DNA of 54,414 bases, the filler included, from Bipalium vagum (taxonomy: Eukaryota), in NCBI GenBank assembly GCA_037834085.1. It is 3 parts of 3 records of this genome, joined end to end, with 100 filler letters (N's around TTAATTAATTAA, not from the genome) between each part and the next. Parts side by side here need not be neighbours in the genome. Positions count along the whole stretch, not along the records: positions 16,486 to 36,409 come from JBBMKC010263967.1; 2 more parts are not named here. One strand, 5' to 3'. Under the pieces are notes generated by a model. It was not told the origin of the DNA. It saw only the letters and a list, made by a program, of their open reading frames with translations, and made no database searches. This document shows positions 27,041 to 30,049 of the stretch, in pieces. Position numbers and translations under genes: made by a program. Position 1 is the stretch's first letter. The number at the start of each line of letters is the position of its first letter.

Positions 27041-28223
27041 ATTTGAGAACAAATGGTTACAAAAAGTAGTTTTCTTTTATTTAACCATTTTCACATGAGC
27101 AGGTAACTTTTTATATTTTCACTAGGTTGTCACTTGATGAGACAGCCAAACAAATTTGTGACAATTTATTGACACGACAAAATTGTATATAGATTTACAT
27201 CTTACAAATAATATCAAGAATTGAAAGAATCAAAAGAAGATTTGTTTATTGATGCTCGCAGCAGTTACATTCACTAAAATACAGTACAGAAATCCTGGAA
27301 AACTGTTAACAATGCAAGATACTTTACATTTTTAAGAAGTATGATCCAGAAATTTTCTCGACAAGATTCTTTCATTCAGACATCATGGATACTAGTCCAA
27401 GGCAATGCAAGAACAAATATCTCTTAAAAAAAGAATATATTTCTGCAGTCCAAGGGCGTAAGACCTCTACCACTTTCCTGCATACTCACTAAAGTTTTTT
27501 ATTATTATTTTATATTTGGTCAGTGGAAAGTGACAACAAACAAAGAATTTCATTAATGAAAGTGAATTCAGTGACAATGATTATTCATATTCTGGTGACA
27601 ATGGATGATAGACCGAGATCTAATTGCACTTATTAATAAAGCAGGTGACTACATATAACATATATCTTACACATGTATTCACTTAAATAAAGACTTCAGG
27701 AACGTGTCTATGATTTTCTTAACTGAGCTTAAAGTATAACAATAATAGAATAAGAATGAAGAAAATAAAAAAAGAATCAAATTCTCTTAATTCTTTCCGA
27801 AAACATCATCGCACCACAGTTGATCGATAAACATTAATATCGCCGAAAATATGGCAAATGTTGAGGGAAAATTTATGCATCTTCTCTCATATTTTTAAAT
27901 TATGTATCCTTTTCAAAATATAAAATAAATAATAAAAAAGAAACAATAACAACAAGCTCAAAACAAGTTGATGTTATCTAAATTGGTTGATATTAAATGG
28001 GGTGAAAATTTCCATCAGAAATAATTGATGGGGAGCAAAAAATATTTCTCTTTATCAAAAATCAAAATATTTTCCAATTTAGATTTTCATTGAAATTTGA
28101 CATTCACAATTATGGTAGATTCAAACTCTATCAATATCGATTTATTGGAAGGTTTCATCTTTTCATTATTATCAGAAAAGTACTTTTTATGTACTTTTAA
28201 TTTAAAGTGCATATCGAAGTAGT

Positions 28224-28653
28224 TGTGAGATAAGTTGAAAATTAGTTGGGAGATATAGCTCAAGGGTCAGGACAGTCCATATGCATGTGAAAGATTATGA
28301 AACGAAAGAATACTCAAAAGCCATCAACTCTCCAAGAGTAAGATAACAGATATCGGCAAATTCTGTGTTTCTTCAAACATCAAGTGGAGTGTTGGGAATT
28401 TCACTGGGATGTTGGGAAGACATTGACGTAGAAAATGATCTTGATAGATGTAACGATGAACTAATATAAAAAAACAAAAAAAATTTGTGATATAATGTAA
28501 TGCATTATTTATTTGTATGTTTTATTTTATTGCCATGCTAAGCCCAGAGCACTGTGGTGATGATTTATATTTATATTCATGTATGTAAAAATTTGTAAAA
28601 ATTATAATTTTGTTCGTCGAATCCCGGTATCCTCAATTAATTTTTAACTAACA
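28224..28653 (+). mobile_element. solo LTR of the same tRNA-containing TRIM family, interrupted by an RLE retrotransposon
   Basis: TGTGAGATAAGTTGAAAATTAGTTGGGAGATATAGCTC...GCATGTGAAAG [insert] GTCGAATCCCGGTATCCTCAATTAATTTTTAACTAACA aligns to LTR 9764-9651. Flanks GTAGT / GAAGT are a 4/5 TSD match. Confidence 0.88.
28293..28615 (+). mobile_element. second, shorter 5'-truncated copy of the RLE non-LTR retrotransposon
   Basis: ILKSHQLSKSKITDIGKFCVSSNIKW...WEFHWDVGK...DLDRCNDELI* vs ILKKLQFSKRKSTEIGKFCVSSNIKW...WNFHRNVGK...NLTDCDEELIYN* in copy 1; same 3' UTR end ATTTTGTTC. Confidence 0.9.
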
Positions 28654-30049
28654 GAAGTAAAAACTTAAAGTTCATAACTCAATCAATGGTTTTACTTTGT
28701 TCAGAGTTTCTGAACAGAAATTTAGCCTCTTTCTCTGATCTGTCGCTAAAGATCGAAAATAACAAGGGCTTCAACAAGCTCTGTGACAGAGTTTGATTTA
28801 ATGACGTCTTGTAATATGTAATAAGTATATTAGTATCATCACGATTTCATAAAAAACTTTATATTACGAGGGTCATAAAGTAACCTTCAAACACTCGTAA
28901 ATTCAATAAAAAGATTCAAGATTAAGTTTAAGAAATAATTAAAGGTGTATGGGAAATGGAATTTTATTAATTATCAAAATAGAAAACAATTATTCCTTGA
29001 TTATAAAATCTTTTTAAAAATAATTTTCTTATAGAGATTCCAATACTTAATTGATAACAGTGAAAAATGTCTTTTCAAATCGTGTGATCATTTTTAATTC
29101 ATAAGGATATTAAACGGTGGATCTTTCAAGATCTCATTATTTCTTTAATCCTAAGTAAAACTTTATTAGAATTTTTTTCCTATATGGTTATCTAGCTCAT
29201 AAATTCATTAAAGTTTCACTGTTAATTTGAAAATAGTCAATATTTATAACCGAAATTAATATTAACCAATCTCATTCAAGATCTGAATTCAATATTTTAG
29301 AGATGTGTTCATTAATACTCAAAAAACCTTTACAAATAAAAAAACCGTGAGTCCATTTAAATTTGACAACCAGAAATATTTTAGAAAATACTAGAATTTC
29401 AAAGTCCATAATATAATAAAATATAATAAATACAGCACTGTTATGAGAGTGAAAGGGTCAGGCCGAAAATCTTCGTTAAATGAAAATTTATTAACATTTA
29501 TTTATTATTAGCATAAGATTTATTTACATAATTAAATTATTTTCTTAAACAACTAATTTATATTTGCCTCACAATATTAATAATATTAATTTATTGATTT
29601 TTATTATTATTGATTTATATAAAATAGTTTTGAATCTGTCTCTAAAATGTACAATAATTATCGAGAATTAAATAGCAGAGGGTAAAATATAATTAATACT
29701 AATAAAAAATACATTTATTGGAAGCTTACTTTACATTTATCTTTTATTTGTGCAAAAATTCCTCGATTTTTTTAATTCGAGAAATTTCCTTTATATTCTT
29801 TTTGTCTAATTAATAAAATAATTTTTTCCATCATTCTAATTTCTTACTTAATGAACTGAGGGTAAATAGGAAAAATGCCTTTGGGAATATGAATGAAATG
29901 TTTTAATTGAGATGGATAACAGAAGGGCAATGATAATAATGAAAGTTTTAAATATATTGGGTCATACAATGAAATAATATAATATAATATTATATTATAT
30001 TCAATACATATATTGTTAGACTAAATTTGTTTTAATATTTAAAAAATAG

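Follow-up and report, generated by a model that had tools for sequence, protein, structure and literature searches.

In Bipalium vagum (assembly GCA_037834085.1) the truncated copies of an R2-like element with a restriction-like endonuclease (RLE) very probably end at one and the same base of the tRNA T-arm, which they meet for the most part in tRNA-Ala-derived LTRs belonging to a mini-retrotransposon (TRIM) and occasionally in tRNA genes, probably by sequence-specific cutting and target-primed reverse transcription (TPRT). Copies of one parasite are likely the main landing pad of another. A preliminary description had overlooked that the feature recognised is likely the tRNA T-arm, as indicated by the tRNA-derived LTR core and by hits at the same base in tRNA genes. 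The window, i.e. the whole stretch of 54,414 nt that was analysed, is composed of three contigs; a first occupied locus lies on the first of them and a second one, at 28219-28658, on the second (JBBMKC010263967.1).

The first locus is a complete TRIM with an RLE copy in its 5' LTR and comprises the following features:

10790-10808, minus strand: 19-nt remnant of the complete TRIM's 5' LTR
9935-10789, minus strand: 5'-truncated RLE copy of subfamily A with zinc finger and RLE region and 3' UTR (ORF 10070-10636)
9897-9934, minus strand: rest of the 5' LTR on the 3' side, from LTR position 77 onwards
9765-9896, minus strand: TRIM internal region, 132 bp, non-coding, with PBS and polypurine tract (PPT)
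9651-9764, minus strand: empty 3' LTR, 114 bp (Rfam RF00005, 37.5 bits; ARAGORN)

Bracketed by a perfect 5-bp target site duplication (TSD; 9646-9650 and 10809-10813), the TRIM has a layout of 114 + 132 + 114 bp, about 360 bp in total, with two LTRs, a PBS that matches the 3' end of tRNA-Arg with one mismatch, and a PPT. The tRNA-like core of the empty 3' LTR spans 9668-9739 and is called by ARAGORN without a valid anticodon. Judged by its sequence, this core derives from host tRNA-Ala(TGC), with which it shares 61 of 68 aligned bases (61-63 for LTR cores in general) and to which it is closer than to tRNA-Ala(AGC/CGC) or tRNA-Ile. The 5-bp TSD is exact in 16 of 19 empty solo LTRs and is present with at most one mismatch in 15 of 25 occupied ones vs 1.06 expected from shuffles, lengths of 4 and 6 bp matching in 0 and 1 of these 25, respectively. 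Exact matches to a 20-mer from the LTR number 794 across the assembly, which comprises 441 Mb.

Two sequences, L224 and L225, carry an LTR-like end and a PBS running on along tRNA-Arg well past 18 nt, as if reverse transcription had continued along the primer tRNA, which supports tRNA-Arg priming. Three host tRNA-Arg genes are, by eye, identical to Schmidtea genes displayed in S6 Fig of PMC4640811, pointing to a probable planarian host. When an autonomous partner of the TRIM was sought, L226 was found to share the PBS, and the three frames of it tested gave no informative Pfam match. About 360 bp from the TRIM (8823-9287, minus strand) a retroviral-type aspartyl protease motif (PF00077) probably marks a decayed LTR retrotransposon. 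At 6030-6450, minus strand, a decayed RLE fragment with about 40% identity to subfamily D/F and without a TRIM LTR sits between direct repeats of about 430 bp that are 85% identical (5625-6021 and 6447-6876), and the third contig contains exons of an intermediate filament gene (49831-51609, minus strand; PF00038).

The LTR of the second locus can be identified by its sequence as the 114-bp LTR of the same Helenus-like TRIM, here in solo form:

28219-28223, plus strand: left TSD of the solo LTR, GTAGT
28224-28293, plus strand: 5' part of the solo LTR (LTR positions 1-69), 79% identical to the empty LTR of the window
28294-28615, plus strand: 5'-truncated RLE non-LTR retrotransposon, subfamily B
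28616-28653, plus strand: 3' part of the solo LTR, with B box/T arm from G53, T run and CA end
28654-28658, plus strand: right TSD of the solo LTR, GAAGT

The LTR runs from TG at 28224 to the CA end at 28653, and its flanks bear out the 4/5 TSD of the preliminary description. Its 5' part includes the tRNA-Ala-derived acceptor strand, the A box/D arm and the anticodon arm, and the insert of 322 bp consists of the final codons of the RLE domain, an acidic tail, a stop near 28466 and a 3' UTR ending TTTTGTTC, with two internal deletions of 7 nt and about 70 nt. The earlier statement that both LTRs were hit at the same base needs one qualification: this junction deviates by 1 nt from the usual position, and the LTR resumes at 79 rather than 77 because one T is missing. 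Both RLE copies of the window indeed encode IGKFCVSSNIKW with four synonymous codon differences, a favourable patch: the 28 alignable codons of the pair contain 10 synonymous and 8 nonsynonymous codon differences, and the 12-mer is therefore the best part of the alignment. Moreover, 12 of the 14 readable subfamily B copies have TCT (Ser) where the window copy has TGT (Cys), so that one of the four synonymous differences is probably a coincidence.

Longer copies of the RLE element contain an N-terminal frame, an Ulp1 protease, a reverse transcriptase (RT), a CCHC finger and the RLE, with Ulp1 C48, RVT_1 and zf-RVT as Pfam domains. The Ulp1-like protease upstream of the RT (PF02902) was detected with an E-value of 1.6e-10 in L110, a copy of subfamily E; the subfamily A copy tested gave no match to PF02902, its region resembling L110 by eye. 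The zinc finger/RLE region of a subfamily D copy matches the C-terminus of R2 proteins (E 4e-16). This order of RT, CCHC zinc finger and RLE identifies the insert, at the level of sequence, as an R2-group non-LTR retrotransposon, and its copies exhibit the footprint of TPRT, a fixed 3' end and variable 5' truncation. No intact copy was found, all copies seen being broken or cut by contig ends, and the longest open frame comprises 571 aa. In 26 of 29 copies of subfamilies A, C and E an in-frame UGA separates the N-terminal frame from the Ulp1-RT-RLE frame (e.g. L091:4536-4538 and L110:1974-1976; copies L361-L385). It is directly followed by CAA in 23 of the copies, and of four copies folded, three have a hairpin behind the UGA with z-scores of -2.7 to -3.5 and the fourth gives 0.18; this UGA is likely a read-through signal.

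Merging of overlaps reduced 184 tail matches to 147 distinct 3' ends, which fall into subfamilies A (first locus), B (second locus), C, D/F and E. These labels were set by tail similarity, and the tree agrees with them for the rows used. Computed from 216 columns of the 29 best-covered copies (up to six per group) and 14 homologues, all of them lacking informative names, the tree has the topology (E,(D/F,(A,(B,C)))), in which A-D/F form one clade (support 99/95), D/F is basal in this clade and E is its sister. The preliminary description had assigned the insert of the second locus to a diverged subfamily, and A and B do form separate groups.

The target is interspersed and contains at least 226 junction copies. 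Copy numbers are not based on summed contig depths. A second run, filed under a different organism code, gives thin coverage of the two elements; one of its contigs crosses the RLE-LTR junction with 30 letters in the LTR, below the threshold of 31, and the run was left out as evidence for other species. Counts of specificity were restricted to 3' ends recovered by RLE-only queries, and among the 77 readable ends of A-D/F obtained in this way 67 join the LTR and three join tRNA genes, the other seven being four that keep GTTCRA and then diverge, two in damaged LTRs and one possible tRNA end (L263, for which no empty allele was found). None of the 29 ends of subfamily E lies in the TRIM LTR; they are found in dispersed TA-rich sites instead (Fisher p 9e-20). 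By the tree and these counts, the four old subfamilies with the targeting habit form one clade whose sister, subfamily E, lacks it. Reverse nesting was also observed, L196 being a TRIM LTR inside the tail of a subfamily E copy.

Across all 104 LTR junctions the LTR resumes at position 77, which corresponds to tRNA G53 in the T-arm/B box, in 86 cases, at 78 in 11, at 79 in three and elsewhere in four. The inserts have the same orientation as the tRNA, and 5' LTR halves were found upstream of inserts spanning 74-4977 bp. The 5' junctions lie at LTR positions 68-76 in 38 of 45 cases with a mode at 72 (13 cases), corresponding to a modal target loss of 4 bp; insertion thus leaves a short loss on the 5' side and no target duplication. 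The LTR predates the insert, to judge by the 5' LTR halves found upstream and by TSDs that match on both sides of the inserted sequence. Read the other way round, the last 38 nt of the LTR would belong to the 3' end of the RLE element itself, as a sequence captured a single time, and the element would insert anywhere. Many copies do lack the 5' LTR half within the flanking DNA examined, including some with full-length 5' ends, but the half is present upstream of 45 copies, 18 of the 104 junctions run on into the PBS and the TRIM internal region, and some copies end in tRNA-Ala or tRNA-Ile. We rejected this reading, which is contradicted by the matched TSDs, and regard it as extremely improbable.

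Five junctions in tRNA genes are located at the same base as those in the LTR. Patterns aimed at non-LTR continuations gave nine matches, seven mutated LTRs, one tRNA-Ala(TGC) and one tRNA-Ile(AAT) end, and a follow-up search added one junction of tRNA-Ala type and two further tRNA-Ile junctions that share the flank of the first, resulting in one tRNA-Ala(TGC), three tRNA-Ile(AAT) (L233, L238 and L251) and another tRNA-Ala (L252). All five represent the 3' side only, the contigs ending before the 5' half. The tRNA-Ala(TGC) gene was hit by subfamily A, and its array flank matches that of an intact gene (L232 vs L212). In L252 the target has GATC, and the junction can thereby be placed before G53. 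As L233, L238 and L251 share one flank, which differs from that of the intact tRNA-Ile array found, the insertions in tRNA genes may comprise as few as two events.

Among clear junctions from RLE-only queries the share of tRNA genes is 3/9 in D/F vs 0/61 in A-C (Fisher p 0.0015), with the D/F sample seeded with a tRNA-inserted copy. Subfamilies A-C might have become specialised on the TRIM, reading bases that are peculiar to the LTR and go beyond the tRNA consensus, with tRNA genes as off-targets that only the basal D/F still uses regularly. The position of D/F in the tree and the single A copy that the aimed patterns recovered from a tRNA gene agree with such a specialisation. However, the contrast could stem from the seeding of the D/F sample, from the collapse of tRNA arrays in an assembly of 272,664 contigs, where three exact tRNA-Ala 3' ends are present while LTRs are dispersed, or from selection, which probably acts against tRNA-gene insertions; moreover, subfamily A was found at precisely this base of a tRNA-Ala gene. 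We consider specialisation of A-C conceivable but doubtful and prefer the reading in which all targeting subfamilies recognise the T-arm.

The codon comparison suggested in the preliminary description was carried out with 102 copies of at least 60 codons, out of 144. Between A and B pS is 0.73 and pN 0.20, giving a dN/dS of about 0.09 with dS near saturation; ratios within subfamilies A, B and C are 0.30, 0.46 and 0.36, and comparisons among A, C, D and E reach saturation in dS and yield neither a ratio nor an age. None of the values is near 1, which supports the earlier proposal that the copies come from different masters under purifying selection. The comparison of LTR and RLE trees that had also been suggested was performed as a Mantel test of LTR against RLE 3' UTR distances and revealed no correlation (rho 0.009, p 0.44, 32 copies), the LTR remnants of about 100 bp giving it low power. 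For 11 of the 32 copies, the LTR closest in sequence is occupied by the same subfamily. Saturated synonymous sites, uncorrelated distances and different flanks and truncation points together argue for independent insertions and an old preference, both of which had been claimed. Since host LTRs differ from one another by 11-20% and the subfamilies are near synonymous saturation, the target preference appears to predate the LTR copies that are now occupied.

One or a few insertions might also have been multiplied by the TRIM itself, by copying of occupied LTRs, or by segmental duplication. One duplicate pair with common flanks (L075/L077) and the nearly invariant 3' junction would fit, but the 5' truncation points differ across the 45 junctions, where a single pair starts alike and has different flanks, and among 18 occupied 5' LTRs the partner 3' LTR is visible for 13 and empty in all 13. 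The presence of four subfamilies with near-saturated dS and the uncorrelated LTR and RLE distances likewise speak against multiplication. Piggy-back copying was rejected on the grounds of truncation points, empty partners and dS, and we deem multiplication in either form highly improbable, leaving independent insertion as the preferred reading.

The finding that two of the three LTRs are occupied is correct within the window, where the two lie on separate contigs, but does not hold as a genome figure. Exact-pattern junctions comprise 429 empty and 81 filled ones, corresponding to an occupancy of 81/510, or 81/794 when referred to the 20-mer, i.e. about 10-16% genome-wide; these figures cover well-preserved LTRs only. 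A sample not picked for occupancy, the first 30 matches by contig number, yielded four filled LTRs, 25 that are not filled (three of them internally deleted) and one cut by a contig end, hence 4/29 (95% interval 5-31%).

In R2-group elements the RLE nicks one strand, the RT copies the element RNA from the nick and often halts before completion, and the 5' end is joined by way of a second cut. Applied to the junctions, this scheme would have the endonuclease nick the bottom strand at 52|53, before G53, and cut the top strand near 48|49, near C48; both sites are read from junctions, and microhomology can shift the 5' ones. The recognition motif is likely the variable loop and T-arm common to tRNA-Ala and the LTR, and the abundant LTRs may serve as a cheap substitute for tRNA genes. 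As the insert parts the A box from the B box, it would silence the presumed Pol III promoter of that LTR.

A second, distant RLE family, G (L266 and L301-L330), has 32% identity in the C-terminal region. Seven of its 30 tails end inside tRNA genes at varied positions, in tRNA-Ala at the T-arm base used by A-D and in tRNA-Ile, tRNA-Leu and tRNA-Arg elsewhere (by eye), and eight terminate close to the 3' end of the TRIM LTR that A-D use; in two of these eight the rest of the LTR lies upstream, with a duplication of 7-9 bp.

Targeting might instead depend on tethering by a Pol III factor (TFIIIC on the B box) or on pairing of the RNA tail with the target, with little reading of DNA by the protein. 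In favour of this, targets vary at tRNA positions 54 and 57-60, the tail of E ends GTAT(A) and E lands in TA-rich sites, and the distant family G likewise has tails in tRNA genes, where their positions vary, and uses a different base of the same LTR. Against it, the single-base precision of A-D fits an R2-type nick, which is sequence-specific, and the C/D tail ends GTAC, mismatching the target GTTC. Tethering or pairing thus seems rather unlikely, and sequence-specific cutting remains our preferred mechanism.

Elements of the Tx1 clade target other transposons, as exemplified by Tx1L in Tx1D. Like Tx1L, the Bipalium RLE element is a non-LTR element that inserts at a constant position within a second mobile element, but the Tx1 clade combines an APE endonuclease with DNA-transposon hosts, whereas the Bipalium element combines an RLE enzyme with a tRNA mimic in an LTR. 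Transposons are among the listed targets of non-LTR elements (PMC4640811, PMC8869645). A close parallel is NeSL-1_TV of Trichomonas (PMC4640811), which resembles the Bipalium element in being an RLE non-LTR element inserted in sense orientation into a T-arm, that of tRNA-Pro, with a 4-bp target deletion (S6 Fig). Its junctions lie 3 nt further 3', however, and the targets shown are tRNA-Pro genes only, whereas the Bipalium element resides mostly in a mobile tRNA-derived LTR. LIN15_SM and LIN25_SM of the planarian R5/LIN lineage share the planarian-type host and the targeting of tRNA genes, tRNA-Arg and tRNA-Glu, but their 3' junctions fall in the D arm or close to the 5' end of the tRNA and not in the T-arm; copies of LIN25_SM also occur in tRNA-like sequence aligned to Polinton-4_SM (S6 Fig), so that a transposon serves as a minor target in that case and as the principal one in Bipalium (PMC4640811). 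An Ulp1-like protease upstream of the RT is described for nematode NeSL and Utopia-1_TSP in the same source (PMC4640811).

As in Helenus (TRIMp3), defined as a non-coding TRIM of less than about 1.3 kb in which a PBS and a PPT accompany two LTRs, the Bipalium TRIM is short, within the length range, and non-coding and has a tRNA-derived LTR with A and B boxes, a PBS, a PPT and many solo LTRs, but the TSD of animal Helenus is reported as 4 bp (PMC10886601) and that of the Bipalium TRIM is 5 bp. The main text on Helenus, in the part covered here, names no flatworm and describes no targeting by another element (PMC10886601). Searches of the openly accessible literature revealed no RLE element that mainly targets a TRIM or Helenus. 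The parts are known from NeSL-1_TV, LIN15/25_SM and Helenus; their combination, at this scale and with a sister control and a second family on the same LTR, appears to be new.

Multicopy host genes are regarded as the place where site-specific RLE elements persist. In Bipalium, the habitat would be supplied by another transposon that spreads a tRNA promoter through the genome. Tentatively, three layers can be envisaged: a tRNA-mimicking TRIM may be the main habitat of old RLE lineages that shifted from tRNA genes, depend on the spread of the TRIM and switch off its presumed Pol III promoter; a second, distant RLE family may have colonised the same LTR at another base; and the TRIM may shield the tRNA genes and in turn be held in check by the RLE elements. 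The findings also extend tRNA-bearing TRIMs to a flatworm, with a 5-bp TSD. Since one genome harbours the clade with the targeting habit, its sister without it and a basal branch seemingly using tRNA genes more often, the gain or shift of RLE specificity would be directly testable via the proteins and RNA tails.
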